Positions 3,527 to 62,194 of a DNA stretch of 64,000 nucleotides are shown one piece after another (the stretch's first letter is position 1; each line of letters begins with the position of its first letter). A program made the position numbers and the translations under genes. Location: positions 2,006,695 to 2,070,694 of the forward strand of contig CBDCYF010000005.1 of the NCBI GenBank assembly GCA_965224065.1, read 5' to 3'. The stretch is from Candidatus Multivoradales bacterium (GTDB taxonomy: Bacteria > Acidobacteriota > Thermoanaerobaculia > Multivoradales > JAHEKO01). A model generated the notes under the pieces. That model did not search any database, was not told where the DNA came from, and saw only the letters and a program-made list of their open reading frames with translations.

Positions 3527-3596
3527 GGAAGATCAGTCTATCCGAGAGCCGTCTCTCCGGCTCGTTTCTCGAGCCACGGAAGAATAGAATTCCGGG

Positions 3597-4331
3597 ATGC
3601 CTTCTTCCCCATCGCCAACCCAACCGGCCGGCGAACCGGCGGTGTGGCCGGCGCGTCGCGGCACGATCGAGGCGCGATTTTGCGGACGTAGTGTCGGGGC
3701 CAGCCGCGAGTCCCCCCGTGAATCACCCCGCGAATCCCCCCGCGAATCCCCTTCCGAATCCCGTAGCCAGGTCCTGGATCGCGTCGCTCCGGAGTCCATG
3801 GATCTCGCGTGGTTGCGCCAGATTCACTCCAACCGTTGCATCGAGGCGCGCCCCGGGGCGGTGGAAGAGGGGGATGCCTTGTGGACGGACCGACGGGGGA
3901 TCGCCCTTTGTATCGCCACCGCCGATTGCGTCCCGGTGGTGATCGCCGGCAACGGCCGACTCGCGGTGGCCCACGCCGGTTGGCGAGGGATCGTCTCGGG
4001 CGTCGTCGCCTCGGCGCTCGAGGCGCTGGGCCAAAGCGCCGAACCGGTCGGCTGGATTGGGCCCTCGATCGGCGTGTGCTGCTACGAAGTCGGAGACGAC
4101 GTGGCCCGGCGGATCGCGGACTCGTCCAGCGCCGACGTCATTCGAGCGCAGGCCGGCCGGCGTCCCCGGGCCGATCTCGCCGCGGCCGTAGAGGCGCAGC
4201 TAACCGCCGGCGGTGTCCATGACGTGCGCCATCTGGGCGGGTGCACCTCGTGCCAGACCGATCTGCTGTGGAGCTACCGCCGCGAAGGTCCCGGCGGGGG
4301 ACGAAATCTGACCTTCGCCTGGATCGGATAA
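3597..4331 (+). CDS. pgeF: PgeF/YfiH-family purine-nucleoside phosphorylase / polyphenol oxidase (DUF152); start uncertain
   Basis: WLRQIHSNRC aligns with E. coli WLEQVHGKDV. The ATADCVPV...AHAGWRG and GPSIGVCCYEVG...SYRR motifs are present. The N-terminal ~65 aa are low-complexity (ESPR)n. An internal ATG at 3798 would give a truncated domain, so the long ORF is preferred. Confidence 0.6.
   Translation: MPSSPSPTQPAGEPAVWPARRGTIEARFCGRSVGASRESPRESPRESPRESPSESRSQVLDRVAPESMDLAWLRQIHSNRCIEARPGAVEEGDALWTDRRGIALCIATADCVPVVIAGNGRLAVAHAGWRGIVSGVVASALEALGQSAEPVGWIGPSIGVCCYEVGDDVARRIADSSSADVIRAQAGRRPRADLAAAVEAQLTAGGVHDVRHLGGCTSCQTDLLWSYRREGPGGGRNLTFAWIG
3708..3767. repeat. Imperfect 12-bp tandem repeat (GAATCCCCCCGC x ~5) in frame within pgeF
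   Basis: The units are gagtccccccgt / gaatcaccccgc / gaatccccccgc / gaatccccttcc / gaatcccgtagc. They encode ESPRESPRESPRESPSESRS, and the reverse strand reads GDSRGDSRGDSR. Confidence 0.8.
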
Positions 4332-7734: not shown

Positions 7735-7913
7735 AACTCGAAAAAACTCAGATTCTATGGAGAATTACGACTTGTACGGTTTGGCTTTTTCGAGACGTCG
7801 TAACGGCGCGCCGATACGGGTCCGATCAATCCAATCAGTGCCAGCTAGAAAGACAGCAATTTGAATGCCACTCTATCCGGTCCGCCGGAACGGTGGCGAA
7901 CCCGGGGCGGAGG

Positions 7914-8171
7914 TCAGCTTCGCGGGGCGCGCCGGCGCTTTTTTCCCGCGATGTCGGCCGGTCGAATCCTCAGATTACTGACCTTGTTCCGCAGCGTGTT
8001 GCGATGGATTCCCAGGGCTTCGGCGGACCGGGTCAGGTTGCCGTCGTTGCCGCGAAGCGTGGCGACGATGTATTGCTTCTCGAACTCGCGGACTCCCTGG
8101 TTGAGCGTCAAACCACACCCGGCCAGCTTCTCGGCAAGCCGGACCATCTGACCGTTCAGCGTGTCTTTCAT
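7914..8171 (-). CDS. fis: Fis-family DNA-binding protein
   Basis: About 86 aa. The C-terminal HTH GNxxxAAxxLGIxRxTLRxKL is a Fis/NtrC-type HTH. I chose the internal ATG at 8171 (MKDTLNG) over the GTG at 8225. Confidence 0.6.
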   Translation of the reverse strand: MKDTLNGQMVRLAEKLAGCGLTLNQGVREFEKQYIVATLRGNDGNLTRSAEALGIHRNTLRNKVSNLRIRPADIAGKKRRRAPRS

Positions 8172-10459: not shown

Positions 10460-11274
10460 TGTTTCTTGGCGGCCCTTTTCACCTGTTTCCGGTCCCGCTT
10501 CGCCCGCCGCTTGGCGACGCCGCGGCGCTCGCCCTCGAGTCTCCTGAGGTATTTACTGCCGGTGTACTCGGCCTGGAGTAGGCCCAGCACCTCTTCCGCC
10601 TTCTCGTTCTCGCCGATTTCGAGGTGGGCGATACCGAGAAAATAGTAGATCTTGTCCTTCTCGGGGTAGGCGGGGTACTCATCCAGCACCCGTTGCAAAC
10701 GGATGGTTGCCGCCTTGAAGCAGATGTTGCCGCATTTGGCATAGCGTGCCCGTCTGAAGTTGTAGTGCCCGACCAGAAACTCGGCCTCCGCCAGGCTCGC
10801 GTTGACCTTGTCGATCTGGCGCTGCGTCTCCTCGGTGTATCCGCTGTCGGGAAACAAGTGCAACAGATCCTGATACGCGATGAGCGCCTCCCGGCTGATC
10901 GACTGGTCGCGGTCCGGCCGGCGCATTCTTCCCGCCAGGCTGGATGCGATCTGATACTGCACATAGGCGGCGCGTTCGCTGGTCGGGAACCGATTCTGAA
11001 AGTCGCGGTACTTCGCCTCGGCCTTGATGAAATTCTGCGTCCCTCCCTGCTGAAAATGCGCATCCGCAACCAGCAGCAAGGCCTCGCGCCCGCTGGCGGA
11101 ATTCGGCTCGACCTCGAAGGCGTGGGTCAGGTACTGCCGCGCGCGATAGAACTTCTTGGCGGCCATCAGGGCCTTGCCCTCCGCCAGCGACTCCTGCGCC
11201 GAAAGCCGCAGGATCGGGTCCTCCTTGGGCGCCCCGCAGCCGACCGCGAGCAACGCCAGCGAGAGCAGCCACAT
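10456..11274 (-). CDS. bamD: Outer-membrane protein assembly factor BamD (lipoprotein)
   Basis: I chose the ATG at 11274 (MWLLSLALLAVGCG lipobox) over the 479-aa ORF, whose N-terminal 207 aa are Gly/Arg-rich nonsense. TPR-like repeats are present, and a basic C-terminal tail KRRAKRDRKQVKRAAKKQ ends the protein. It overlaps the cpoB start by 4 nt. Confidence 0.8.
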   Translation of the reverse strand: MWLLSLALLAVGCGAPKEDPILRLSAQESLAEGKALMAAKKFYRARQYLTHAFEVEPNSASGREALLLVADAHFQQGGTQNFIKAEAKYRDFQNRFPTSERAAYVQYQIASSLAGRMRRPDRDQSISREALIAYQDLLHLFPDSGYTEETQRQIDKVNASLAEAEFLVGHYNFRRARYAKCGNICFKAATIRLQRVLDEYPAYPEKDKIYYFLGIAHLEIGENEKAEEVLGLLQAEYTGSKYLRRLEGERRGVAKRRAKRDRKQVKRAAKKQ

Positions 11275-11294: not shown

Positions 11295-11957
11295 TCACGA
11301 CGCCACCCCCACCGCTTGCTGGCGCAGGTCGGCCATCGCCGCCGCCGGATCCGTTCGGCCAAAAACCGCGGAGCCCGCGACACAGAATCCAACACCGGAC
11401 GAGGCCACTTCGGCGATATTGCGCTCGTCGATCCCGCCGTCCATCGCCACGACCAAATCGGGCTTGTGCTCGGCTCGCATCCGGTCGAGGCGCCGCGCCT
11501 TCTCGAGGCTGCGAGGCAAAAAGCTCTGCCCCGCAAAACCGGGATTCACCGACATGATCAACACAAAGTCCAGGCTCGGCAACACGTCGACCAGTACCTC
11601 CACCGGGGTCGCCGGGTTGAGCGCCACTCCCGCCTTCGCCCCGGCCCGCCGAATCCTCTCCACCAGACGGTCGAGATGAGTCGCGGCCTCCCAGTGGACC
11701 GAGACCCAGTCGGCTCCTGCCTCCAGATAATCGTCCAGCAGACGCCCTGGATTCGACACCATCAGATGGACGTCGAGGGGGAGCTGGGTGCGCTGCTTGA
11801 GCGCGCGCACCACCGGGATCCCAAACGTGAGATTGGGCACAAAATGACCATCCATCACGTCCACGTGCAATAAGTCCGCGCCGCCGCGCTCGCAAAGATC
11901 GCAGACACCGCCCAGGTCGGCCAGATCTCCCGCGAGGATGGAAGGTGCGAGCAACAC
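11295..11957 (-). CDS. rpe: Ribulose-phosphate 3-epimerase
   Basis: HVDVMDGHFVPNLTFG, DVHLMV and MSVNPGFAGQSF are present, and the protein is full length at 220 aa. Confidence 0.9.
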   Translation of the reverse strand: MLLAPSILAGDLADLGGVCDLCERGGADLLHVDVMDGHFVPNLTFGIPVVRALKQRTQLPLDVHLMVSNPGRLLDDYLEAGADWVSVHWEAATHLDRLVERIRRAGAKAGVALNPATPVEVLVDVLPSLDFVLIMSVNPGFAGQSFLPRSLEKARRLDRMRAEHKPDLVVAMDGGIDERNIAEVASSGVGFCVAGSAVFGRTDPAAAMADLRQQAVGVAS

Positions 11958-47093: not shown

Positions 47094-47966
47094 ATGAAGA
47101 AGGAACCGAGCATAGGCGAGCTCCGCACGGTGCTCGAAATGATCAAGTTCGAGCACACGCTCTTTGCGCTGCCGTTTGCGTTTCTGGGGATGCTCTTGGC
47201 AGCCGGCGGATGGCCCTCCTGGCGCGTGGTCGGTTGGATCGTGGTGGCGATGGTGGGGGCCCGGAGCGCGGCCATGGGGTTCAACCGGCTGGCCGATCGC
47301 CGGATCGACGCCACCAATCCCCGCACCGCCGACCGTGCCCTGCCCACCGGCCGCGTCAGCGCTCCCTTTGTTGCGGTGTTTGTCGCCGCCAGCGCCGGGC
47401 TTTTGATCCTGGCGGCGTGGCAACTCAACCCGCTGGCGCTCAAACTCTCGCCGCTCGCCCTGGCGATCGTGTTTTTCTATTCCTACACCAAGCGCTTTAC
47501 CCCGCTGTCGCATCTGGTCCTCGGTCTGGCCATCGCCGGCGCGCCGCTGGGCGCGTGGATCGCGGTCCGTGGCGACGTCACGCCCACTCCTCTGGTGCTC
47601 GCCGGAGCGGTCCTGCTCTGGGTCGCGGGGTTCGACGTCCTGTACGCGCTCCAGGACCGCGAGCACGATGTGCGCTCGGGGCTTCATTCGATCCCGGCAC
47701 GCCTGGGCGAGCGAGGGGCGCTGTGGGTCTCGGCGCTCTTCCACGCCGGGATGCTGGCGCTGCTCTGCCTCATACCGTGCATCTATCCGGCCCTCGGCGC
47801 CTGGTACTGGGTCGGAGTGGCGGGCTGCGCGGCGCTGCTCGTCTACCAGCACTGGATCGTCCGCCCGGGAGACCTGTCGAGACTCGACGCGGCGTTTTTC
47901 CGCGCCAACGGGATCCTCGCGCTGTGGCTTTTTGCCGCGACCGCGATCGATCTGTGGCGGGCATGA
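47094..47966 (+). CDS. UbiA-superfamily aromatic prenyltransferase (UbiA/MenA/MqnP-like)
   Basis: NRLADRRIDA is the first Asp-rich motif. The second, DVLYALQDREHD, is present, with ~8 TM helices. I chose the ATG at 47094 inside the longer ORF. Confidence 0.8.
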   Translation: MKKEPSIGELRTVLEMIKFEHTLFALPFAFLGMLLAAGGWPSWRVVGWIVVAMVGARSAAMGFNRLADRRIDATNPRTADRALPTGRVSAPFVAVFVAASAGLLILAAWQLNPLALKLSPLALAIVFFYSYTKRFTPLSHLVLGLAIAGAPLGAWIAVRGDVTPTPLVLAGAVLLWVAGFDVLYALQDREHDVRSGLHSIPARLGERGALWVSALFHAGMLALLCLIPCIYPALGAWYWVGVAGCAALLVYQHWIVRPGDLSRLDAAFFRANGILALWLFAATAIDLWRA

Positions 47967-49552
47967 GCCGCACCCCGCCCCACGCCGCTACCGAGCAGGG
48001 CCGCTACGAAGGGTCCTGGACCGACGGTGTAGCGGTCTTCCGCGGCATCCGTTTCGCCACGGCGCCGACAGGACCGCTTCGCTGGGCGCCGCCGGTCGCA
48101 CCGGAACCGTTCGCCGGAACCAAGGGGGCCGTCGAGTTCGGCCCCGCTTGCCCGCAGACTCCGGATTGGGACGCGCCCAACCGAGCGGCCGCCCGGGCCG
48201 CGGGCGTCGACCCCGCCCGCGTCGCCATGGAGGCGGGCTCGACCGGCGAGGACTGTCTGTCTCTCAACATCTGGACGCAGGCGCCCGATGACGGCCGCCG
48301 CCCGGTGATGGTGTGGATCCACGGCGGGGCTTCGAGCTGGGGCTCGGGGTCGGCGGCGCTCTTCGACGGCTCCCGGCTGGCCGCCGAACATGACGTCGTG
48401 GTAGCGACCATCAACTACCGTCTCGGCGCGCTCGGTTTCCTCGCCCACCCCGAACTCGCCCAGGAGAGCCCTCTGTCGACCGCCGGCAACTACGGCTTTC
48501 TCGACCAGGTGCAAGCCCTTCGTTGGGTGCGGGCCAACATCGCCGGGTTCGGCGGCGACCCGGCCGCGGTCACCGTCTTTGGCGAGTCGGCCGGCGGCCG
48601 GAGCGTGTTCGAGCTGCTCGCCCACCCGCCCGCCCGCGGACTCTTCCACCGCGCCATTGCCCAAAGCCCGTGGGAGGAGATCCACCACAGTCGCCGGCTC
48701 GGCGAGCCGTACGCGGGCGTCGAGTCCGCCTTCGACCTGGGCGAACGGCTGGTGGGCGAACTGGGTCTCGGCCGAGACCGGGTGGTCGAGCGGCTGCGCT
48801 CGGTCCCGGCCAACGAGCTCGTCGAGGCGTCGCTGCCGCTGGGCAATCCCGGCACGACGTGGGGACCGGTGGTCGACGGCACGGTCTTCCAAGACAACCC
48901 GCTCGCCACCCTCTTGCGCGGCGAGGGTCACCGGGTACCCTTGATGCTCGGGTTCAACCGAGACGAGGGTACGATCTTTTTTCTCGACCCGGATTTCCCC
49001 CTTCTGGACCCCGGACGCTATGGCGACTATGTCCGGGGCCTTTGTGGCGACGCGGCGGCCGAGGTCCTCGGCCGCTACCCCGGCTCGGACGATCGGGTGG
49101 CAGCCCACCGGTCGTTCTCGGAGCTCTACGGCGACCGGGTGTTTTCGCTGCCCTCGGTCGCCGCCGCCAACCGGATGGGCGCCTCGCACCCGGTCTATCT
49201 GTATCGCTTCTGCCACGCTCACCCGCCCCTGTCGGCCGCCCAGGACGGCCGCCGGATCGGTTGTTTCCACGGCTCCGAGATCCCCCTCCTTTTTGGCACG
49301 ACGGCCGAGGCCTTCGACCCGGCCGACGAGCCGTTGGGCGCGACGATGCGGGCACAGTGGGCCCGCTTTGCGCGCTCCGGCTCGCCCAACGGCGAGGACC
49401 TTCCGGTGTGGCCGCGGTACGAAGCGGACGGGGGCACGTATCTAGAGCTGGACGAGGAGATCCGCACGGCGAGAGACCCTCTGGACGGTCGGTATTCCCT
49501 TTTGGCCGCCGAACTCGAGGGGAGGCTCGGCCTTCGGACCGGAGCTCTCTAG
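47963..49552 (+). CDS. Type-B carboxylesterase (para-nitrobenzyl esterase-like)
   Basis: EDCLSLNIW carries the oxyanion-region Cys, the catalytic-Ser motif is GESAGG, and the C-terminal FxxSEIPLLFG motif is present. Its start overlaps the UbiA stop (ATGA). Confidence 0.85.
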   Translation: MSRTPPHAATEQGRYEGSWTDGVAVFRGIRFATAPTGPLRWAPPVAPEPFAGTKGAVEFGPACPQTPDWDAPNRAAARAAGVDPARVAMEAGSTGEDCLSLNIWTQAPDDGRRPVMVWIHGGASSWGSGSAALFDGSRLAAEHDVVVATINYRLGALGFLAHPELAQESPLSTAGNYGFLDQVQALRWVRANIAGFGGDPAAVTVFGESAGGRSVFELLAHPPARGLFHRAIAQSPWEEIHHSRRLGEPYAGVESAFDLGERLVGELGLGRDRVVERLRSVPANELVEASLPLGNPGTTWGPVVDGTVFQDNPLATLLRGEGHRVPLMLGFNRDEGTIFFLDPDFPLLDPGRYGDYVRGLCGDAAAEVLGRYPGSDDRVAAHRSFSELYGDRVFSLPSVAAANRMGASHPVYLYRFCHAHPPLSAAQDGRRIGCFHGSEIPLLFGTTAEAFDPADEPLGATMRAQWARFARSGSPNGEDLPVWPRYEADGGTYLELDEEIRTARDPLDGRYSLLAAELEGRLGLRTGAL

Positions 49553-49634
49553 GGGCTCCAAAAGCGCAAAAAATTGCGGTCGGCTGTCAGAAACACGGCG
49601 CGAGCGGCATATTTAGGGCGAGGAGGCCCTACAC

Positions 49635-49862
49635 GTGCTACTCGACAACGTCGTTTCCTGGTTGTTGATCAGTCTGGTGACCGTAGCGACCCTGACCTTG
49701 GGCGCCGCCGTCGCCCGCCTGGTCTTTCCCGAGCTGCGCCCTCTTCGACTGGACCGGTCGGAAAGCAGCGCGCTGGTTCAGGCCCTCGTCATTGTTGGCG
49801 CGGCCCTGCTGGCGCTGACGTTTGTCGTGTTCGCGCTCCGCTCCTTCGCGGCGGGCCTCTGA
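49635..49862 (+). CDS. Small two-TM membrane protein (75 aa), GTG start with AGGAGG RBS
   Basis: A perfect AGGAGG sits 8 nt upstream of the GTG. Two hydrophobic helices flank a charged loop, which reads [13 protein letters not shown]. Confidence 0.4.
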
Positions 49863-49975
49863 GCCCAGGGGCTCGCTGAAGGACTCCAGCCAAGCGCGTA
49901 CTCTTCCCCATCCACGCCGAAAACTCCGGGGGTATGATCCGCTCGCCCGACGGGCTGACGCGCCCGGAGTCACCC

Positions 49976-51838
49976 ATGGCCACTCCACCCCCCGAAGAGC
50001 TCAGAGAAGATCTGAGGACCGATCTCCGAGGCGATCTCAGAAACTTGGCGATCATCGCCCACGTCGACCACGGCAAGACGACCCTGGTCGACGCGATGCT
50101 GTGGCAGAGCGGGATCTTCCGTTCCAACGAAGAGGTGCAGACGCGGGTGATGGACTCCAACGACCTGGAGCGCGAAAAGGGCATCACGATCCTCGCCAAG
50201 AACACCGCGGTCGAATACCAAGGCGTCCACATCAACATCGTGGACACCCCCGGCCACGCCGATTTCGGCGCCGAGGTCGAACGAACGCTCAAGCTGGTCG
50301 ACGGTGTCCTGTTGCTGGTCGACGCCAGCGAAGGCCCGCTGCCGCAGACGCGATTCGTGCTGCGCAAGGCGCTCGACGATGCTCTCGAGCCCATCGTGGT
50401 GATCAACAAGATCGATCGCCCGGACGCCCGCGCCGACGAGGTGCTCAACGAGATCTACGATCTCTTTATCGATCTCGACGCCGAGCCCGAGCAACTCGAG
50501 TTTCCGGTGCTCTATGCCAACGCTAAGGCCGGCACCTGCCGCACCGAGCCCGACGGTGAGGACCACGACCTCCGGCCGCTCTTCGACCAGATCCTCGAGA
50601 CGGTTCCCGCTCCACGCCACCATCCCGGCGCGCCGCTCCAGATGCTGGTCACGACCCTCGACTACGACGACTATGTCGGCCGCCTGGCGATCGGGCGGGT
50701 GTGCGAAGGGACTCTGCGCAAGGGCGAGACCGTCGCCCGGTGCCGCCTCGACGGCGCGACCGAGACCGCGACGGTTACCAAGCTCTACGGCTTCCGGGAC
50801 CTCAAAAGACACGAGATCGAACGGGCGGGCGCCGGTGAGATCGTCGCCGTCGCGGGTCTCGATGAGATCGCGATCGGCGAGACCCTGTCCGATCCCGACG
50901 ACCCGCAGCCGCTCCCGCCGATCCACGTCGACGAGCCGACGCTCGCGATGAGTTTTTCGATCAACGATTCGCCGCTCGCCGGCACCGCGGGCACCGGCGG
51001 CAAGTTCCTGACCATGCGTCATCTGCGGGACCGGCTCCACCGCGAGACGCTGACCAACGTGGCCCTTCGGGTCGAAGAGGCCCAGAAATCCCAAACAGCG
51101 GCAAACGAGATTCAGGTGGTCGGCCGGGGCGAGCTGCAGCTCGCGATCCTGATCGAGACCATGCGCCGTGAGGGCTACGAGTTCTCGGTCGGCCGCCCGC
51201 GGGTGCTCACCCGGACCGACAACGGCGCCGTGCTCGAGCCGATGGAGCTTCTGAGCGTCGATTGCCCCGAAGAGTTCATCGGCGCGGTCACCCAGAAGCT
51301 CGGCCCGCGCAAGGGGCGGATGAACAAGATGGTCAATCACGGCGGCGGCCGCGTCAGGATGGAGTTCTCGATCCCGGCACGCGGGCTGGTCGGCTTTCGT
51401 TCCGAGTTTCTGACCGAGACCCGCGGCACCGGCCTCTTGAACCATCTCTTCGATGGTTACGGCCCGTGGCAAGGCGACATCCCAAAACGCGCCAACGGCG
51501 CCCTGCTCGCCGACCGCGCCGGCAAGGTGACGTCCTTTGCGGTGGACCACCTCCAGGCGCGAGGCGTCTTTTTTGTCGCGCCCGGTGACGAGGTCTACGA
51601 GGGCATGATCGTCGGCGAGCACTGCCGGCCCCAGGATCTCGACGTCAACATCACCAAGGAGAAAAAGCTCACCAACATGCGCGCCGCCTCGGCCGACGAC
51701 TTTGTGCGCCTAGTGCCGCCGCGCGTCCTCAGCCTCGAGCAGGCGATCGAGTTCCTGGACGACGACGAGCTGCTCGAGGTGACGCCAAAGATCTTCCGCC
51801 TGCGGCACCGAACGCTGGCGGCCAACCGCAGAAAATAG
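49976..51838 (+). CDS. typA: Translational GTPase TypA/BipA
   Basis: G1 [10 protein letters not shown]3 DTPGH and G4 NKID are present, with the BipA-specific C-terminal domain. I chose the start at the ATG with a GGAG RBS (an alternative lies at 49934). Confidence 0.9.
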
Positions 51839-51921
51839 TCGCCCGCGGAGCCCACGGCCCCGGATTTCGCCGGTTCGCGGCGGGATATACTCACGGCCCC
51901 GGAAGCGCTCGAAGAGCGAGA

Positions 51922-54799: not shown

Positions 54800-55117
54800 C
54801 TAGTCCTTGGCTGTTTCGAAAAGGGCTTTCAACGCCACGACGAGCACCGCGGCACTGATGAAAGCCACAACGTTTCCGAGGATGGCGGACGCGCTCTCCC
54901 CGATATAGGGGATACCTCGCGCCGCCGACGCCGACACAATCAAACCGATTGCCGCGAGCAGGAACCCGTGCGTTTCGCCGCCGGTCACATTCAAGAAGCC
55001 GACGACCAGCCCGAGCAGAATCAGCACCCAGCTAAACCAGCTCTGATCAACCCCCAGCCCACCCAGGACGGCAATCACCAGGCCCACGATAAAGGCCCAC
55101 TTACCGACTTGTCCCAT
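54800..55117 (-). CDS. Small (105 aa) 3-4-TM membrane protein of unknown function
   Basis: A GGGAGG RBS lies 6 nt upstream of the ATG at 55117. The sequence is hydrophobic throughout. The longer 179-aa ORF was rejected because its 5' part is antisense noise across the tRNA promoter. Confidence 0.5.
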   Translation of the reverse strand: MGQVGKWAFIVGLVIAVLGGLGVDQSWFSWVLILLGLVVGFLNVTGGETHGFLLAAIGLIVSASAARGIPYIGESASAILGNVVAFISAAVLVVALKALFETAKD

Positions 55118-55187
55118 AGTCCTCCCTTCTCGGATTCGACTTGTGGAGATCTGGGGCGCCCCGAGCCTCGAGCTTATCAGGCCGCGC

Positions 55188-55216
55188 TTGCGACGGGATC
55201 GCGCCTGTCCTAGAAT
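55188..55216 (+). promoter_or_regulatory. Sigma70-like promoter for tRNA-Arg (TTGCGA - 17 nt - TAGAAT)
   Basis: The hexamers are near-consensus with optimal 17-nt spacing. They lie about 33 nt upstream of the tRNA 5' end. Confidence 0.45.
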
Positions 55217-55248
55217 CCCCCTCCCATACGCGCTCCTGCGCGGCACGT

Positions 55249-55325
55249 GCACCGATAGCTCAATTGGATAGAGCACCTGACTACGGATCAGGAGGTTGGG
55301 GATTCGAGTTCTCCTCGGTGCACCA
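55249..55325 (+). tRNA. tRNA-Arg (anticodon ACG), with encoded CCA
   Basis: The 7-bp acceptor stem is GCACCGA/TCGGTGC. The D-arm is AGCTCAATTGGATAGAGC. The anticodon stem CCTGA/TCAGG encloses loop CTACGGA. The T-arm is GGGGATTCGAGTTCTCC, and the 3' end is ACCA. It closely resembles E. coli tRNA-Arg(ACG). Confidence 0.85.
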
Positions 55326-55439
55326 TTTGTTTCAATCACTTACGGCTTCGTTGAACGTCGGCGTCAGCACTCGCCGGTGGAGCCCGAGGGTGCCAAAAAG
55401 TCAGCCGACTAGCTTAGCCTCCCTTTATACGGGCCGCGC

Positions 55440-55740
55440 GACATCGATTTCGCCTTCTGGATCACATCCGGTGTGGGCTCGTAGGCTTTGGCGATCTCGC
55501 ACTCTCTCTTGTTTCTCGTCTTCACAAGTCGCCGGATAAGCTGAACCATCAGCAGCAGGATCTGATCGACTACCTGCGAGAAAAGAATCGGATCCTGCGG
55601 AAGCATCTTGGCTCCAGCGTCTTCGGCTCACGGATGAGCAGTGCCGTCGCCTTGCCGTTCGAGGCAAGGTGCTCGGACGCAAGCGCCTTGACGAGACCGC
55701 CGGACCCCAATCTAGACCCCCAGTGTCCCAAGCGTGTCGG
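55440..55740 (+). pseudogene. Frameshifted N-terminal remnant of a DDE (integrase-core) transposase
   Basis: One frame reads DLIDYLREKNRILRKHLG. A +1 frame continues KRLRLTDEQCRRLAVRGKVLGRKRLDETAG. Together these match the conserved N-terminal HTH/leucine-zipper region (…LRHQL.VL.RQ…RPRLRPADRALLAAL…) of a widespread transposase family. No catalytic domain follows. Confidence 0.45.
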
Positions 55741-55913
55741 CGGATTGCTCAGCTACTACCGGCGCGAGGCCGCGCCACCTGAGCTGTGGGCCGATTTATT
55801 TGCGCCCTGCGGACGGCGACGCTGTTGAGCGCAGTTGGGAAGGAAGATGCTAGACTCCCTCTGACTCCTATACAGATAAGGTCTTCCTAACCGCCCGAGG
55901 AGGTGCAACAGGA

Positions 55914-56699
55914 ATGAGATCCGCGACATTTACGCTGGCGCGACCTTCAGAAGAGTGTGTGTACCGAACCGCCGCTCTGTTTGTGCTTGCAGCACTCATC
56001 TTGCCCGTTCAGGTCTCCGCGAGACCCAAGAGGAATCTGCCAGACAATTCTCCTTTATTGTGGACCTTGACAGACGAAATAAGCCCAACGGAACTTCGCC
56101 GTGCTAGAAACGACCCTCAAGCAGTGCGATTGAGAGCCAAGGCTTCTCGGATGGCCCCGGAAGCAAGATCTCGACTAACCGACTTTGTAGATGGCAGAGC
56201 GACACCCGCTCTGGTCACAATGGCTGAAGCCTTAACAGGTTTTGCGGGTTACTTTGATAGCGATGTGGCGGGCGAGGCCAGCATAGGCAAGCTTGTTGCG
56301 TGGTATCAACACTTCCATATTTCTACGGATGGCGCGGACAGGCTTACAGAGTTTATGGTCAGAATGGACAAAACCTACAAAAGGCACCAATCGCTGGTGG
56401 GTACCGATCACGTCGATATCGCCAAGTCAATTGCCAGACTAGAAGAGCAGACTAAGAAGAGTCATCCGAAGCTGTGGATCGCTTTCGAGACGAACGATCT
56501 CAAGACGCTTTCTAAAGGCTTGGATATGCCGATCAGAAAACTGCGCAAGAAGCTCCGCTATAACTACGATCCATGGGACCGGTATCTAAGCAACAACCTA
56601 CCTCAATTGCGCAGCGACCTTTCACCATACGATTGGAAAGGACTTAGAACTATGTTGTACGAAGTCGTGGTTCCGGGTTTTTCCTCGATATCCCAATAG
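55914..56699 (+). CDS. Exported protein of unknown function (island gene 1)
   Basis: GC is about 50% against about 68% in the flanks. An N-terminal hydrophobic signal/anchor (AALFVLAALILPVQVSA) is present. I recognise no domain. Confidence 0.5.
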   Translation: MRSATFTLARPSEECVYRTAALFVLAALILPVQVSARPKRNLPDNSPLLWTLTDEISPTELRRARNDPQAVRLRAKASRMAPEARSRLTDFVDGRATPALVTMAEALTGFAGYFDSDVAGEASIGKLVAWYQHFHISTDGADRLTEFMVRMDKTYKRHQSLVGTDHVDIAKSIARLEEQTKKSHPKLWIAFETNDLKTLSKGLDMPIRKLRKKLRYNYDPWDRYLSNNLPQLRSDLSPYDWKGLRTMLYEVVVPGFSSISQ

Positions 56700-56714
56700 A
56701 GTAAGGCAACGGTT

Positions 56715-57764
56715 ATGACAACAAGGGTCCGTTACCTCGTCAGTGCCGCAGCACTAGCAACAACCTTCACCACGGTGGTCGCACCGCTGAATGCGGGAAC
56801 AATTTCTATCTGGGCTTACATGGATATCAACTTGGCTACCCACCCGGAGAAAGATTGGGTAATCGCGGGGCACCGAGCTACCTACAATAATTTCGCTGGT
56901 AAGGACTATTACCAGTATAACTTTTCTGCAGACGAGAATAATTATTGTTTCGACGCTACGGACGGCTGGGACTCCGGGTTCATCAACCATAACGCATCCC
57001 AATTCGGGGCCATTACATCCAATAGTTTTGTAAAGAGGGCTGACAAATCTAACGGGAGCGATGCCTCTGCGTTGTGTTGGAGCTGCCTGGGCGACAGAGA
57101 TCCAAATGAGTATGTGGCAACGGGCTTTGCACACGTCTTCAGGGGCACCAAGCTAATTGCCTCGCTTTCAAAGTCGTACGCAAGAGACAGCGGCAGTCTT
57201 TGTTTGTGGAGTATCGAGCCGCCGCAAAGTCCGATTATTCTCGACATGGGTGGAGACAACATCAGACTTTCCGGTCCGAGCGTAGAGTTTGATATTGACG
57301 CAGATGGTGATTTAGAGCTTGTTTCCTGGGTCAAGAAAGCCGATGATGTTTTCTTAGCCTTTGATAGGAATGGCAACGGAACTGTGGACAACGGGGCAGA
57401 ACTGCTCGGTGACTCTACTCCGCTGCTTAACGGAGCGACAGCAGAACATGGCTTTCAGGTGCTAGCTGAATTGGACTTGCCTGAGAACGGGGGAAACGGT
57501 GATGGGTATTTTACTGAAGAAGATTCTACTTTCGGGGAACTTCTTCTTTGGTCAGACAGCAATCGAGATGGATTTGGGGGCAGCGGTGAACTTCAACCGG
57601 CAAGCAGCGCGGGATTGGTGTCGATCGATCTCGACTATGTTGAAAGCCGGCGGCGGGACCGCCACGGCAATGAGTTCCGCTATAACACCAAGGCTGCGAT
57701 CATAATAGACGGTAAAACCGGGATCCGCCATGCAAGCGATGTGTTTCTGGTAACCATCGAGTAA
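56715..57764 (+). CDS. Exported protein with EF-hand-like Ca-binding loops (island gene 2)
   Basis: The signal peptide is LVSAAALATTFTTVVAPLNAG. Three D-x-[DN]-x-[DN]-G loops are present (DIDADGDLE, DRNGNGTVDNGAE, DSNRDGFGGSGE). The region is low in GC. Confidence 0.5.
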   Translation: MTTRVRYLVSAAALATTFTTVVAPLNAGTISIWAYMDINLATHPEKDWVIAGHRATYNNFAGKDYYQYNFSADENNYCFDATDGWDSGFINHNASQFGAITSNSFVKRADKSNGSDASALCWSCLGDRDPNEYVATGFAHVFRGTKLIASLSKSYARDSGSLCLWSIEPPQSPIILDMGGDNIRLSGPSVEFDIDADGDLELVSWVKKADDVFLAFDRNGNGTVDNGAELLGDSTPLLNGATAEHGFQVLAELDLPENGGNGDGYFTEEDSTFGELLLWSDSNRDGFGGSGELQPASSAGLVSIDLDYVESRRRDRHGNEFRYNTKAAIIIDGKTGIRHASDVFLVTIE

Positions 57765-57803
57765 TGGCCTCGAATTACCTTGCCGCAGTTTTTTGATGGA
57801 GAA

Positions 57804-58400
57804 TTATTCCAGGCCACGGGGAACTCTAGCGAGAGTTCCCATAAAGTTTTCGTCTACTTTCCAGCCATTGTTGGTCGGGTGAACTCGTAGCTGACCCTCG
57901 AGTCGGCGTGCGACGAGGTTCTCGTGTCTGGAGGCAGTTTTTTGCAACGCTGGGTGCTCGATCCAGTTCTTTGTGACCTCTGCCCAGTATTCGAACTTCA
58001 CGTCTGAGTAAACCTTCCCAGGACGGACCGGCTCGGTGAAGTCCTTAATCTGTATGCGGGACTCTCCAAAGATCAGGCAGTCGCCAAGGAAGTTTTTCTT
58101 GTTGAATGACTCCCCCTTTTCTGTGAGTACATAAGTGACCTTGGTTTTTTTATTGGGTTTCTGATCCGCTGTTGGATCCCAGGGCATTTCCGGAGCGTTA
58201 ACGACTTCGATCTTCTTCTCCATCATGCCTGCCTGTACCAAGGAATCTTCATTCCCAAGTGTTCCAAGACAGGCGGTGTGGTTATCCGCTAAGAACGCTT
58301 CTATGGCATCGGTAAGCTCCGCCTCCGAGACCCCTACAGCGCAGCCGAATGAGAATCCACAGGCAAACAGCAGTACAACAGCCCAACACTGGTTTCTCAT
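57804..58400 (-). CDS. Probable lipoprotein of unknown function (island gene 3)
   Basis: I chose the ATG at 58400 (MRNQCWAVVLLFACGFSFGCAVG, hydrophobic with Cys). It is low in GC and convergent with island gene 2. Confidence 0.45.
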   Translation of the reverse strand: MRNQCWAVVLLFACGFSFGCAVGVSEAELTDAIEAFLADNHTACLGTLGNEDSLVQAGMMEKKIEVVNAPEMPWDPTADQKPNKKTKVTYVLTEKGESFNKKNFLGDCLIFGESRIQIKDFTEPVRPGKVYSDVKFEYWAEVTKNWIEHPALQKTASRHENLVARRLEGQLRVHPTNNGWKVDENFMGTLARVPRGLE

Positions 58401-58827
58401 CGGCTCTTCTTTAGTAGGTTCGGCGTCGCCAATAACTACCGCGTCCACGTGCTTCATGACACGCAAAAAGGCCCTGTGTCAAGAGATCTGCGCTGTGCGT
58501 GCTCCCGTCCTATCCGAAAATTGGATCATGCATAACTTGTTCTCTCGCCCGCGACCCGAAAACTCCGGCGCCCCGCCTCTTCAGGCCGGTTGAGTCTTAC
58601 GTTTATTGACGGCTCTCCGCGTCGAGGCTAATCTGTCGTCAGATATCCGACCCTTCTAGAGGAGACGGAGATGAGGCTCTGTGGCGGAGTCTCCGCTGTA
58701 GAGCCTGCTGGTTTTTGGGATCGCGTCCGCGCCGGGACACTGTAAACGACCGTCGCTGTTCGACGCTTGCCCGACAGAACCCCGCCGGCTGGTCCGTCTA
58801 ACCCCAGAGAGGAGGCAAAGCAAAATC

Positions 58828-60615
58828 ATGAAAGCCAAGCGCACGGTTTTAGACGCAGAGCTCCTGTCAATGGCCGACCGCATGGCGCCCGACGCGCCCG
58901 ACAGAGCCGAGCTTCTTTCCGAAGCTGTGGTTCGGAGGGGTCTGGTGGCCACCGACGCGGCTCCGGCGCCCCCCGAGGGAATCACGATCAAGTTGGTCTG
59001 TCGCGCTGGCGAGAGCGAGGCCGGAGCGGCCTGGGTCCGTGAGGCTGGCGGCGACGTGGTCTCGACCGCCGGCGAGGTCCTGGTGGCCAACGTTCCCTCA
59101 GCCCAGCTTGGGGCGCTCGAGAGCATGTCGTGGATCCGGCGCGCCGAGGCGCCCCGCTATCTGATGCCCAAGCTCGACGAGGCTCGTGCGGTCTCGGGTC
59201 TCGACGCCGCTCTCAACGAGCACACTCTCACCGGCAACGGGGTTCTTCTGGGTGTGGTCGACACCGGGGTCGACTGGGGCCATCAGGACTTTCAGAACGA
59301 CGACGACACCACCCGGTTCGAGCTCTTTGTCCACGCCTTTGTGCCACCTGGCCAGGAGGTCTCGCAGATCGACGAGTTCGATGCCGCGGCGATCAACGCC
59401 ACGCTCCAAGGCAACGGCAACGCGCCGCAAGGTGACCCGAACGGGCACGGTACCCACTGCGCCTCGATTGCCGCCGGTAACGGCCGCTCGATCAACGGCA
59501 ATCCGTTCCGAGGGGTGGCCCCCGGTGCGGCCCTGGTGGGTGTCCGCAGCGAGCCCTTGCTCGACACCCACACAATCTTCGGAATCCGTCGCACTTTCGA
59601 GCTGGCCGGCAACCGCCCCGCAGTGGTGAGCCTGAGCCTGGGCGGGCATCTCGGTGCCCACGACGGCACCACCGCCCTCGAGAACGCCATCGCACGCGAA
59701 TCGGGACCGGGCCGGATCGTAGTCATCGCGGCCGGCAATGAGGGCGGCGACGGGATCCACTTCGCCGGCGAGATGGAAGAAGGCGTAGATCTCGAGATCC
59801 CGGTCCGGAACAGCGACCCCAACCTGCAGTTCATAGACGTGTGGATCGAGCGTGGCGACGAGGTCGACGTGGTGATCGAGTCACCCGACGGCGTCCAGCA
59901 CCCCGCGGATGGCACCGTCCAGGAAACCGATTTCGGTTTCTTCCGTGCCGATTTCCGAGAGGATTCGATCAACCGCGACCAGAACTTGACGCTGGCTATG
60001 GCCGGAGGCCAGGCCAATGACATTTGGACGATCCGTATTCAGCCACAAGTGGTTCGGCATGGGATGGTCCACGCCTGGGGCGCTACTCGTGACGCCTCCA
60101 CCTCGCGCCAGTTCTTCCCTGGATCGACCGACCCGTCATTTTCGATCGGGATGCCGGCCACCGAGGAGCGCGCGATCTCGGTGGGCTCGCTGGTCAGCCG
60201 CACAAGCTTTCAGACCGTCAACGGCACGGTCAATACGACATTGAGCAACGGCCAGCTCTCGAGCTTCTCGAGCCACGGACCGACTCGCTATGGGGCCCTC
60301 AAGCCCGATCTCGCCGCACCCGGGCAATTCGTGACCGCGGCCCTATCGGCGAACTCGGATCTGGACAACAACGTGGCGCAGCGCCACCACCCCAACGGGC
60401 CATACGTGACCATTCAGGGGACCAGCATGGCGACCCCGTTCGTCGCCGGTGTCGTGGCACTGTTGCTGGAGCGCGAGCCGAACCTGACCCCGGAGGAGGT
60501 TCAACAACGCCTGCGCATCACCTGTCGGCGCGACGGCAACACAGGGCGCGTGTGGGGCGGAGGCTTTGGTTTCGGGAAGCTCGACGTGGAAGCCCTACTC
60601 AATTATCAGGGCTGA
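58828..60615 (+). CDS. Subtilisin-like serine peptidase (S8 family) with N-terminal I9-like propeptide and no signal peptide
   Basis: The catalytic triad motifs are VVDTGVDWGH (Asp), HGTHCASIAAG (His) and GTSMATPFVAG (Ser), with an oxyanion Asn in AAGNEG. The N-terminal 100 aa show a β-α-β propeptide-like pattern. Confidence 0.85.
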   Translation: MKAKRTVLDAELLSMADRMAPDAPDRAELLSEAVVRRGLVATDAAPAPPEGITIKLVCRAGESEAGAAWVREAGGDVVSTAGEVLVANVPSAQLGALESMSWIRRAEAPRYLMPKLDEARAVSGLDAALNEHTLTGNGVLLGVVDTGVDWGHQDFQNDDDTTRFELFVHAFVPPGQEVSQIDEFDAAAINATLQGNGNAPQGDPNGHGTHCASIAAGNGRSINGNPFRGVAPGAALVGVRSEPLLDTHTIFGIRRTFELAGNRPAVVSLSLGGHLGAHDGTTALENAIARESGPGRIVVIAAGNEGGDGIHFAGEMEEGVDLEIPVRNSDPNLQFIDVWIERGDEVDVVIESPDGVQHPADGTVQETDFGFFRADFREDSINRDQNLTLAMAGGQANDIWTIRIQPQVVRHGMVHAWGATRDASTSRQFFPGSTDPSFSIGMPATEERAISVGSLVSRTSFQTVNGTVNTTLSNGQLSSFSSHGPTRYGALKPDLAAPGQFVTAALSANSDLDNNVAQRHHPNGPYVTIQGTSMATPFVAGVVALLLEREPNLTPEEVQQRLRITCRRDGNTGRVWGGGFGFGKLDVEALLNYQG

Positions 60616-61099
60616 GGCTCGGCAGTTTAAGTTCCATTCGCCGCGGCTCCTCGAGGGCGACGAGCCATTCCAGCTCGGCGACGAGTTCGAGGGCCGCCGC
60701 GTCGGCCTGTATGGTGATCGCGCCCGCCCCGGCGCTCTCTACCACGGCGCCGCATTCCTCTAGCTCGTGCACCGCCTGATCGATATCGGCCGAATACGCT
60801 GGTCGCGCAATAGCCGTGCGCGGCCGGTCGGTGTCGCTGTTTTCCACGACCCAGGTCCTTAGACCGGGCGCCATCTTGTCGGCCGTCTTCTCAGTGTCGG
60901 TTGGCACGTTCGTCTCCTCGGAGGATGCTAGCACCGTGTCCGTGGGCTTCTCGTCGCCGTCCATGCTGGGCACGCTGGGCGACGAACCGTGTTGCTCGGC
61001 TGGCGGGGCCGAGGTGGGCTCGGGCGGCGGAACGCAGCCGAGTGCCGCGATGAGCAGCACCGCTACGAGGATGCCAGCCTGAGACGAACGTGTGTGCAC
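60599..61099 (-). CDS. Lipoprotein of unknown function
   Basis: The lipobox is LLIAALGC. A Pro/Ser/Thr-rich linker precedes a small C-terminal domain. It overlaps the S8 peptidase 3' end convergently by 17 nt. Confidence 0.45.
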   Translation of the reverse strand: MHTRSSQAGILVAVLLIAALGCVPPPEPTSAPPAEQHGSSPSVPSMDGDEKPTDTVLASSEETNVPTDTEKTADKMAPGLRTWVVENSDTDRPRTAIARPAYSADIDQAVHELEECGAVVESAGAGAITIQADAAALELVAELEWLVALEEPRRMELKLPSLSPDN

Positions 61100-61234
61100 T
61101 TGTTTGGAACGGCCGTAGGCCAGTTTATCACGACGAAATTTCCCGCTCGTCGAGCGCTTTCAGCGCCAGAGGCTCGGCCCGTCAAGCTGCCGCAGGCCGC
61201 CTGGACGAGCCCTACACCACGCGCCGACCACGGA

Positions 61235-62194
61235 TCAGGAGGTTGGGGGCAGCGCCGCCAGGGCGTCGGCAAACACCTTGGTGACCGCATCGAACCCTTT
61301 TCGGGTCGGATGGAGCTCGTTCGCCCACCAGTCCTCCCAGGTCTCGTCATTGGGGAGAACGGGGCGGAGGTTGACGTGGCCGACATGTTCGAAGTCGTCG
61401 AGCTTGGTGGTCGCGATCAACATCTTGTTGAAACGATCGATCAGCTTTTTCACCATGGCGGTCCGTTTCGAAAGCGGCTCGTCGGGGAATCCTTTTCTGC
61501 GGAAGCCGGGCCGCAGCCACGGACCCGGCAGCGGCCCCCACCCGCCCCAGTAGCCTCGACCGTCGGGGACGGCGTGAGCGTAGCCATGCAGGAGGATGGG
61601 GATCTTGCGCCCGAATCGTCGCTTGCACAGCATCGTGATCGCGGTCAGCAGGGTGACGTAGGCGTGATGCAGCCGGCGATCGATAATGCCTGACACGACT
61701 TCCTCGTTGAGGCCGGGCCGCGGCGACAGGGCGTGATCGAGCAGGAGTGCAAACTCGTCTCCGGCGATGTCGTTGCCACCGCCCGAGAGAAGCACGGCCC
61801 GGGGCACGATGCCTCTTCTCGCCAGCTTTTCGACCACGCGGGCCAAGCGGTCGAACTGCTTCCGGCTGTAGGCCATGTCTTCCAAGCGATCGCCCCGATG
61901 CGCCACCGACTCCACGTCGTAGCCGTGGTCGTCCTCGAGGGCGTCGAGGATGTCCTTGCCCGGATAGTGGAACCATGAGTCGCCCTCGGCGACAAGCGTT
62001 CCGGCCCGGACGTCGCCACCCGCGGCCCTGACGAGCCGAGCGGGCATGAGCTGGGGCAGGGCGAGCCCGGCCTCGACCTCCTGGGCCATCGCCCGGCGCC
62101 GCTTCAGCGCCTCTTCGCGCGCCTTCAATCCCTCCCTGGCGAGCCGCCTTCCGGCCGCTACCGCCTTCCGCATCTGGGCTTCCGAGCTACTCAT
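61235..62194 (-). CDS. SGNH/GDSL-family hydrolase
   Basis: Block I is EGDSWF (GDS(W)). Block II is LLSGGGNDI, and block V is NELHPT with the DxxH catalytic His. Confidence 0.75.
   Translation of the reverse strand: MSSSEAQMRKAVAAGRRLAREGLKAREEALKRRRAMAQEVEAGLALPQLMPARLVRAAGGDVRAGTLVAEGDSWFHYPGKDILDALEDDHGYDVESVAHRGDRLEDMAYSRKQFDRLARVVEKLARRGIVPRAVLLSGGGNDIAGDEFALLLDHALSPRPGLNEEVVSGIIDRRLHHAYVTLLTAITMLCKRRFGRKIPILLHGYAHAVPDGRGYWGGWGPLPGPWLRPGFRRKGFPDEPLSKRTAMVKKLIDRFNKMLIATTKLDDFEHVGHVNLRPVLPNDETWEDWWANELHPTRKGFDAVTKVFADALAALPPTS

Follow-up and report, generated by a model that had tools for sequence, protein, structure and literature searches.

The DNA analysed here is a 64-kb stretch of the genome of Candidatus Multivoradales bacterium (the window). 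On the 3' side of its gene for tRNA-Arg(ACG) lies a 3.3-kb segment of low GC content (55.33-58.65 kb), which is most likely a horizontally acquired islet. It carries three open reading frames (ORFs), termed g1, g2 and g3. [quoted passage not shown] The g1 protein belongs to a conserved family whose genes recur directly upstream of genes for SPM proteins. In the best joint explanation of these observations, the islet was acquired horizontally, g2 processes itself with a nucleophile of the Ser/Thr/Cys kind, g1 is its cognate partner and g3 is unrelated cargo. We hold this to be modestly probable, an estimate that covers acquisition, the g1-g2 operon and a self-cleaving, partner-bound g2 all together. 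As an island, the islet is an ordinary small acquisition next to a tRNA gene, and its notable part is the cargo.

A FrpC-type self-processing module in g2

The g2 ORF (56715-57764, + strand) encodes a protein of 349 aa, whose parts are listed below. Structure models were made with AlphaFold 2 (AF2).

56715-56798, + strand: signal peptide of g2, residues 1-28 (...APLNAG/TISIW), read from the sequence, with a putative cleavage site and an AF2 helix at residues 3-17
56799-57227, + strand: N-terminal passenger domain of g2, residues 29-171 (about 143 aa), Cys-containing, recognized by homology to the N-terminal domains of g1-linked proteins
57228-57233, + strand: Ser172-Pro173, the equivalent of the scissile Asp414-Pro415 of FrpC in an alignment to 6sjw
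57231-57764, + strand: C-terminal SPM of g2 (PF26745), residues 173-349 and the stop codon, assigned from PF26745, phmmer and Foldseek

The sequence-only reading of this DNA had seen no recognizable domains in the three proteins apart from EF-hand-like calcium loops in g2, and had proposed searches of the BLASTP/HHpred type. Sequence and structure searches lead from g2 to the FrpC SPM and from g1 to a conserved family with at least 68 clusters, and the sequence searches return no homolog or family for g3. The view that the proteins lack recognizable domains can therefore no longer be held for g1 and g2. A homology search with g2 yielded 54 proteins, all of which carry the precomputed PF26745 'SPM' assignment, as does P0001, a protein identical to g2. 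The copy of Pfam-A used with hmmscan did not include PF26745, so that a negative hmmscan result for the SPM is uninformative; the only match of g2 in that scan was a sub-threshold EF-hand.

Comparison with experimental structures identifies the domain. With phmmer, residues 173-321 of g2 match the FrpC SPM in 6sjw (and 6sjx) at E=1.8e-23, and a profile search against the PDB retrieves 6sjw at E=6.1e-48. The AF2 model of residues 170-349 has a predicted local distance difference test score (pLDDT) above 93. Foldseek superimposes it on 6sjw/6sjx across 178 of 179 columns with 35% identity, E=5.6e-15 and a template modelling (TM) score of 0.80, normalized to the target. The C-terminal domain of g2 is a complete self-processing module of the FrpC type.

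The FrpC SPM folds upon Ca2+ binding and twists the Asp414-Pro415 bond, and the side chain of the Asp attacks its own carbonyl (Kuban et al. 2020, PMC7078468). The anhydride that results links the freed N-terminal fragment to a lysine, a reaction known as 'clip-and-link' (PMC7078468). Both cleavage and ligation are abolished in FrpC by the substitution D414A (PMC7846742). The module has been described as exclusive to RTX proteins, which are longer than 1000 aa and are exported by type I secretion systems (T1SS) (PMC7078468). This account of the mechanism, and that of the frpDC operon given below, draws on PMC7078468, PMC5233953 and PMC7846742.

The homology between the two modules extends over their full length in both sequence and fold. 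Ca2+ loops of g2 at residues 177, 193, 217, 254-270 and 281 align with the loops of FrpC and are predicted to bind Ca2+. Those at residues 193, 217 and 281 have the form D-x-[DN]-x-[DN]-G. They account for the three calcium loops noticed earlier, which are present but are the Ca2+ sites of an SPM and not generic EF-hand-like loops. The modules also share a Trp-Trp pair (W451/W519 in FrpC, W205/W279 in g2), the 'narrow port' residues and an invariant Pro at the first position; L475, G477, D478 and G491 of FrpC correspond to L230, G232, D233 and G246 of g2. W205, W279, L230, G232 and G246 are invariant in the 54 sequences. So are D342-V343, which are part of the C-terminal g2 motif D342-V-F-L345; the equivalence of this motif to D579-L582 of FrpC is judged from position, the HMMER alignment ending before it. 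In both proteins, the passenger is situated on the N-terminal side of the module.

The architectures that surround the module are different. FrpC is a protein of more than 1000 aa with an internal SPM. In g2 the SPM is C-terminal, RTX nonapeptide repeats and a C-terminal T1SS signal are both lacking, and a putative Sec signal peptide is found at the N terminus. The fourth Ca2+ loop of g2 has an insertion of five residues (PENGG). FrpC comes from the proteobacterial pathogens, whereas g2 comes from an acidobacterium and has its relatives in Bryobacteraceae and Myxococcota. A further difference lies at the scissile bond, where the anhydride-forming Asp of FrpC gives way to Ser in g2 and to Ser, Thr or Cys throughout its clade.

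The scissile aspartate is replaced across a clade

In an alignment of the 54 sequences (mean column identity 18%), the residue before the invariant Pro is Ser in 33, Thr in 20 and Cys in one, and it is Asp in none. These relatives are 194-610 aa in length, and not one of them has two or more GGxGxD motifs. Their SPM is C-terminal in all but two cases (52/54). The N-terminal parts vary, with an HExxH zincin motif occurring in 15 of 57 sequences. At the position equivalent to FrpC D478, 38 of the 54 have Asn. No description of such a Ser/Thr/Cys-Pro clade of SPMs was found in a literature search.

Ser, Thr and Cys are the three nucleophiles of other protein autoprocessing, and a position at a domain junction that admits only these residues is a hallmark of self-cleavage by an N-to-O/S acyl shift. 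One such position is shared with the g2 clade by inteins and Hint domains, N-terminal nucleophile (Ntn) hydrolases, and SEA and GPS domains. None of these is homologous to g2, whose candidate nucleophile resides in an SPM scaffold in front of an invariant Pro, and the cleavage of g2 is a prediction from its sequence. The restriction to Ser, Thr and Cys next to an invariant Pro, within a conserved port, argues for a catalytic role that has been kept with a different chemistry.

The same substitution can be read in the opposite way. The module of g2 might be a non-cleaving, SPM-like domain that has kept the Ca2+-dependent fold and lost autoproteolysis. It would then serve in Ca2+-gated folding, stabilizing or anchoring, and g2 would stay in one piece. 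C-terminal Ca2+-binding accessory domains are common on secreted proteases, and the relatives with HExxH protease motifs conform to this pattern. The frequent Asn at the D478 position is also in keeping with a loss of activity, as is the absence of the anhydride-forming Asp from all 54 relatives, given that D414A inactivates the FrpC SPM (PMC7846742). However, a position without function would be expected to drift, and this one is confined to three residues beside an invariant Pro. In addition, every residue of the 'narrow port' that surrounds FrpC's scissile bond is either retained or invariant. We take the non-cleaving alternative seriously, at a probability well short of even.

A broader proposal, which we put forward tentatively and consider rather unlikely, is that the Ser/Thr/Cys-Pro proteins constitute a distinct functional clade of self-processing proteins. 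Its members would be Sec-exported and free of RTX repeats, would carry the module at the C terminus, and would be found in Acidobacteriota, Myxococcota and some phage-like contigs. Binding of Ca2+ would induce an N-to-O/S acyl shift that yields a (thio)ester, not an Asp anhydride, from which the passenger could be transferred to a target nucleophile. The cognate docking partner or the target would be encoded upstream, by g1 in this case and by genes for unrelated small exported proteins in other subfamilies. Such proteins would represent a second 'clip-and-link' chemistry on the same scaffold.

One protein of the SPM clade, P0003 (462 aa), is found in locus L083 (1394-3224 and 8001-9389), on a contig that has genes for a small and a large terminase. 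Some members of the clade may be carried by phages.

A conserved pair of g1 and g2

The gene upstream of g2 lies on the same strand.

55914-56699, + strand: g1, a 261-aa, probably exported, all-alpha protein and putative partner of g2 (ORF, family search and AF2)

A GAGGAGG Shine-Dalgarno sequence precedes g1, and approximately residues 1-36 appear to be a signal peptide. The signal region (...LILPVQVSA/RP) has no Cys at the cleavage site and thus no lipobox; in other family members it ends in A-x-A/Q. The earlier assignment of signal peptides or lipoboxes to all three proteins is borne out to the extent that a hydrophobic, signal-like segment can be read at the N terminus of each of g1, g2 and g3. 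A word-index search with g1 returned only g1 itself. Exhaustive HMMER searching delivered a family of 68 cluster representatives, nearly all of them 250-300 aa long and aligned from end to end. They share the signal peptide and a motif at the mature N terminus, SPxWWTLTDExSPxELR. The AF2 model of g1 (pLDDT 89) is entirely helical, and g1 has no match in the PDB by sequence or by structure.

The two genes are closely linked. The gap between them is 15 nt in the window; in L001 and L082 the two genes share 4 nt. In six of the eight informative independent loci (the window, L001, L082, L088, L095 and L089/L090), a gene of the g1 family is followed directly by a gene for an SPM protein. The pair in L001, which is GC-poor, is 44% and 48% identical to g1 and g2. 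In L084 and L085, the protein after the g1-family gene has no SPM but shares the N-terminal domain. Since the linked proteins have this domain in common even where the SPM is replaced, g1 is tied to the passenger domain. Homology to the N-terminal domain of g2 is seen in the g1-linked proteins from L001 and L082; for those from L088, L095 and L085 it is weaker and transitive.

The homologous pair in L082 also occupies an insert. This element of 4.35 kb, which further encodes a helix-turn-helix (HTH) protein and a tetratricopeptide repeat (TPR)-like protein, is bounded by 205-nt direct repeats with 79% identity (3542-3746 and 7894-8098) that duplicate the 3' end of a Cob_adeno_trans gene. The GC content of the pair is 0.46-0.54, as against 0.60-0.64 in the flanks.

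A precedent for the arrangement is the frpDC operon, in which the lipoprotein FrpD, encoded upstream of FrpC, binds FrpC residues 1-414 with a Kd of ~0.2 nM. FrpD has a novel, beta-rich fold, which was determined by crystallography (PMC5233953). In both operons, a protein of ~260-270 aa with a signal for export is encoded directly upstream of the SPM protein and in the same orientation, and this partner co-varies with the passenger and not with the SPM. Unlike FrpD, which is a beta-rich lipoprotein, g1 is all-alpha and has no lipobox, and its binding to g2 is predicted from co-occurrence. Homology of g1 to FrpD was considered and rejected, no similarity in sequence or structure having been detected.

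SPM proteins with other N-terminal domains also have a small exported gene directly upstream, in L096 (3140-5233), L097 (3404-5110) and L098 (812-2569). The SPM proteins are a zincin-SPM protein of 410 aa and a Cys-rich SPM protein of 369 aa, and the upstream proteins (267 aa and 193-210 aa) have no relation to g1. Pairing of a partner with an SPM protein may be a general arrangement.

Pairs of this kind could also be interpreted as a secreted toxin with its immunity protein or inhibitor. The N-terminal domain of g2 would then be an antibacterial or lytic effector that is freed by the SPM, and g1 would neutralize it in the periplasm of the producer. Such a function would suit two tightly coupled genes with a partner specific to the N-terminal domain, an island-borne pair with a patchy distribution, and the unrelated small exported proteins whose genes immediately precede those of two further SPM proteins, including a zincin (L096, L097). 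It is at odds with the features of g1, whose gene lies upstream of g2, whose size exceeds that of the passenger domain and which carries a signal peptide of its own. Furthermore, the N-terminal domain of g2 displays no recognizable catalytic motif, the islet contains no secretion-system genes, and there was no match in PADLOC or to any toxin or immunity family. We regard the toxin-immunity interpretation as improbable.

The third gene of the islet does not belong to the pair.

57804-58466, - strand: g3, an ORFan of 220 aa that converges with g2 and is probably either a lipoprotein or a signal-anchored protein (ORF)

Its likely start codon is M23 (MRNQCWAVVLLFAC...), and a lipobox-like site, L-F-A-C, is present at residues 33-36. 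A word-index search of 5.8 billion proteins found only g3 itself. There was no match in Pfam, NCBIfam, PADLOC or PHROGs, and no tblastn match in any fetched locus. All three ORFs are present as originally described. The idea that they make up one set does not hold: g1 and g2 form a conserved operon, but g3 is convergent with them, is without a homolog and does not accompany the pair elsewhere. A role of the locus in anti-phage defence was also considered and was set aside, there being no PADLOC hit.

A compositionally foreign segment next to tRNA-Arg

The features that delimit the islet, together with the region between the tRNA gene and g1, are the following.

55188-55216, + strand: sigma-70-like promoter of the tRNA gene, TTGCGA-17-TAGAAT (consensus scan)
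55249-55325, + strand: intact tRNA-Arg(ACG), proximal boundary of the islet and sole tRNA of the window (ARAGORN)
55418-55825, + strand: non-coding remnant with a 136-codon open frame, possibly a decayed insertion sequence (IS) transposase (frame translations)
58674-58716, + strand: hairpin with a perfect-looking 15-bp stem and a 3-nt loop, followed by a T-run (terminator-like scan)

A fall in GC content beside the tRNA gene was the starting point of the sequence-only reading, and it is confirmed by the ARAGORN assignment, by sliding-window GC and by codon usage. In windows of 300 nt, GC is 0.61-0.71 before the tRNA, 0.48-0.53 at 56.0-58.4 kb and 0.63-0.70 from 58.7 kb. The change from ~0.65 to ~0.50 occurs directly after tRNA-Arg, and the low values persist as far as ~58.6 kb. 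The 3.3-kb segment with the lowest GC of the whole window begins at 55301 (0.527, compared with a mean of 0.654 and a standard deviation of 0.030), and no second region of this kind exists in the window. GC at third codon positions (GC3) is 0.55 in g1, 0.54 in g2 and 0.59 in g3, in comparison with 0.81-0.90 in six upstream genes and 0.77-0.87 in five downstream genes. The segment is compositionally foreign and adjoins the 3' end of the tRNA gene. The hairpin at 58674-58716 is located exactly at the return to host GC, between g3 and the gene for an S8 peptidase, where no gene of the + strand ends.

The closest relatives of the adjacent ThiG gene come from metagenome-assembled genomes of Thermoanaerobaculia (Acidobacteriota) and are at most 82% identical. 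Eighty ThiG loci were compared with the window, and homologs of g1, g2 and g3 are absent within 10 kb in every one of them. It follows that g1-g3 are no part of the conserved core; their presence at this tRNA in all relatives, with matching GC, had been named as the finding that would speak against an island. More generally, the window between 55.3 and 64 kb contains nothing that these loci match within 10 kb. On the other side of the boundary, tRNA-Arg(ACG) is retained in 13 of the relatives, where it follows ThiG in the same orientation. The gene order dNK-ThiG-tRNA-Arg(ACG) is kept in L002, L003, L019 and L030, and the promoter hexamers are kept upstream of the same tRNA in six relatives (L002, L003, L019, L020, L030 and L036). 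Looking for exact copies of the proteins g2, P0001 and ThiG, and of the product of the GDSL gene that is described below, led to no other assembly.

One relative carries a second, truncated copy of this tRNA gene. In L020, the intact tRNA-Arg(ACG) (10855-10931) is followed ~960 bp downstream, on the same strand, by a 5'-truncated copy (11819-11898). This copy extends from the D-arm to CCA and has two 1-nt insertions. It looks like the duplication of an attachment (att) site that is produced by integration at the same tRNA, and it therefore suggests that tRNA-Arg(ACG) has been used as an integration site in this lineage.

The islet resembles known tRNA-associated genomic islands in its position directly 3' of an intact tRNA, its sharp shift in composition, its cargo of putative secreted proteins and a possible IS remnant. 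It departs from them in its size of only ~3.3 kb, in having no integrase and in that no flanking copy of the tRNA 3' end marks the compositional boundary. Its one associated repeat is an internal 25-nt copy of the tRNA, 5.9 kb downstream.

Low GC content could in principle have developed in native DNA, through relaxed or special selection on fast-evolving secreted proteins. No mobility gene has been confirmed in the islet, the relatives compared include no sister genome, and the 3' flank of the tRNA is variable in all of them, as this explanation would allow. It fits poorly with a GC3 drop of ~0.3 that is shared by three genes unrelated to each other and lying on both strands, and with intergenic GC that is low too. 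The homologous pair in L082 is likewise poorer in GC than its flanks and sits in a repeat-flanked insert, and g1-g3 are absent from the loci of all relatives. We consider a native origin very unlikely.

The region between the tRNA gene and g1 had been described as a fragment of a decayed DDE transposase, an identity that the searches did not confirm. The remnant at 55418-55825 consists of an N-terminal-like piece that is split by a frameshift (55508-55700), with motifs spread over two frames, and of a brief stretch that resembles a C terminus ('RVGGLLSYYRREAA', 55733-55774), and it lacks any catalytic core. By the resemblance of its termini, the remnant may be the two ends of an rve-type transposase with an internal deletion and a frameshift. 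A scan of viral contigs, tblastn against the fetched loci and a motif regex gave no match.

A possibly larger and older island

A second match to the tRNA gene raises the question of where the island ends.

61224-61248, + strand: direct repeat of tRNA-Arg positions 29-53 (23/25 nt identical), which may be left over from an older att site farther out (blastn)

This copy includes an exact match of 19 nt (blastn E=2e-5), and a second match of this kind appeared in none of 100 shuffled sequences. It is situated 5.9 kb downstream of the tRNA gene and shares sequence with the final codons and the stop of a gene for a GDSL-like hydrolase (61235-62194, - strand).

The island might accordingly comprise 55.3-61.25 kb. 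An older element would have integrated in tRNA-Arg, left the copy at 61224-61248 and brought with it the genes for the S8 peptidase and a lipoprotein, and the low-GC genes g1-g3 would have been added later. The copy, on the same strand as the tRNA gene, is not a chance match. Its next base is G; the tRNAs in L002 and L020 have the same base there, and the tRNA of the window itself has A. From the S8 gene up to 64 kb, nothing is syntenic with the relatives, and the duplication in L020 shows the kind of att-type event that is invoked. On the other hand, the copy stops short of the tRNA 3' end, unlike a normal attR. The S8 gene, the lipoprotein gene and the genes beyond the repeat have host-like GC3 values of 0.77-0.87; there is no integrase; and no second repeat separates the two putative layers. 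We view this more extended island as possible but doubtful.

The gene for the S8 subtilase (58828-60615, + strand) and that for the lipoprotein (60599-61099, - strand) are convergent and overlap by 17 nt, and neither is syntenic with the relatives. The lipoprotein was considered as a stand-alone propeptide of the S8 peptidase. Its C-terminal part bears a faint likeness to the N-terminal pro-region of the subtilase (BLASTP E=0.056), which is not significant, and the idea was dropped.

A proposed mechanism

According to the joint explanation that we favour, the functional core of the islet would be the two-gene operon g1-g2, with no recognizable mobility gene left in the islet. The g2 protein would be exported by the Sec pathway, with its passenger of ~143 aa followed by the complete C-terminal SPM. 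By homology to FrpC, the module would be unfolded at low Ca2+ and would fold around four or five Ca2+ ions outside the cytoplasm. Folding would put strain on the Ser172-Pro173 junction and separate passenger and module. With only Ser, Thr or Cys at the position of the catalytic Asp, cleavage would have to be brought about by a hydroxyl or a thiol, through an N-to-O/S acyl shift and an ester intermediate instead of an Asp anhydride. The g1 protein would be the cognate binding partner of the passenger and could act as a dock, chaperone or inhibitor, much as FrpD binds residues 1-414 of FrpC. The g3 protein would be unrelated ORFan cargo.

Several observations weigh against this explanation. One concerns chemistry. 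The catalytic Asp is absent from g2, which has Ser172 in its place, and the loss of the equivalent residue in D414A kills both cleavage and ligation by FrpC (PMC7846742), so that self-processing by g2 would need other chemistry on another bond. The passenger is poorly defined as a structure: pLDDT is below 50 in the AF2 model of the g2 N-terminal domain, which only two sequences cover, and a profile search of this domain against the PDB produced only noise. The analogy of g1 to FrpD as a partner is positional only, since g1 is similar to FrpD neither in sequence nor in fold.

Other adverse points concern acquisition. Each of the relatives examined has a different sequence 3' of the tRNA; with a flank this variable, the break in synteny by itself says little. 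The relatives compared, of which the closest has only 82% ThiG identity, share no downstream synteny and include no close sister genome with an empty site. Scans with Pfam and NCBIfam found no integrase domain in the three ORFs and the remnant. The remnant itself has no match in Pfam, NCBIfam or PHROGs, or by tblastn against plasmids. There is no att repeat at the GC boundary, and a search of 58.4-58.9 kb for a copy of the tRNA 3' end found none, in agreement with the sequence-only reading.

Neighbouring genes

Two further differences from the relatives are seen upstream of the islet. The gap of 500 bp between ThiG and the tRNA gene contains an ORF (54800-55120, - strand) for a hydrophobic protein of 106 aa, with a GC3 of 0.75 that is slightly under that of the core genes. 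The corresponding gap in L002 is 132 bp only, and the 106-aa ORF has no homolog in any relative. Farther upstream, at 47954-51898, a carboxylesterase-like gene and TypA/BipA lie between a UbiA-like gene and a Mqn radical-SAM gene in the window. The latter two genes are adjacent in L002, L003 and L020.

Significance

Judged by sequence, this locus and its 54 relatives place the FrpC-type SPM scaffold in small, putatively Sec-exported proteins outside the RTX family, with Ser, Thr or Cys systematically taking the place of the catalytic Asp. No other natural protein module is known to generate a reactive anhydride on command, and the SPM already serves as a tool in self-excising purification tags and in NeissLock covalent targeting. 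Published accounts confine the module to giant RTX proteins of Gram-negative pathogens and describe its biological purpose as unknown. Here the scaffold occurs in soil and sediment bacteria and, in this subfamily, has a dedicated partner gene upstream. If the module is inactive, its fold would have been reused as a Ca2+ switch. If it is active, these proteins would use a new chemistry, with an ester in place of the anhydride, and would provide a much simpler system of two proteins in which to ask what purpose clip-and-link serves.

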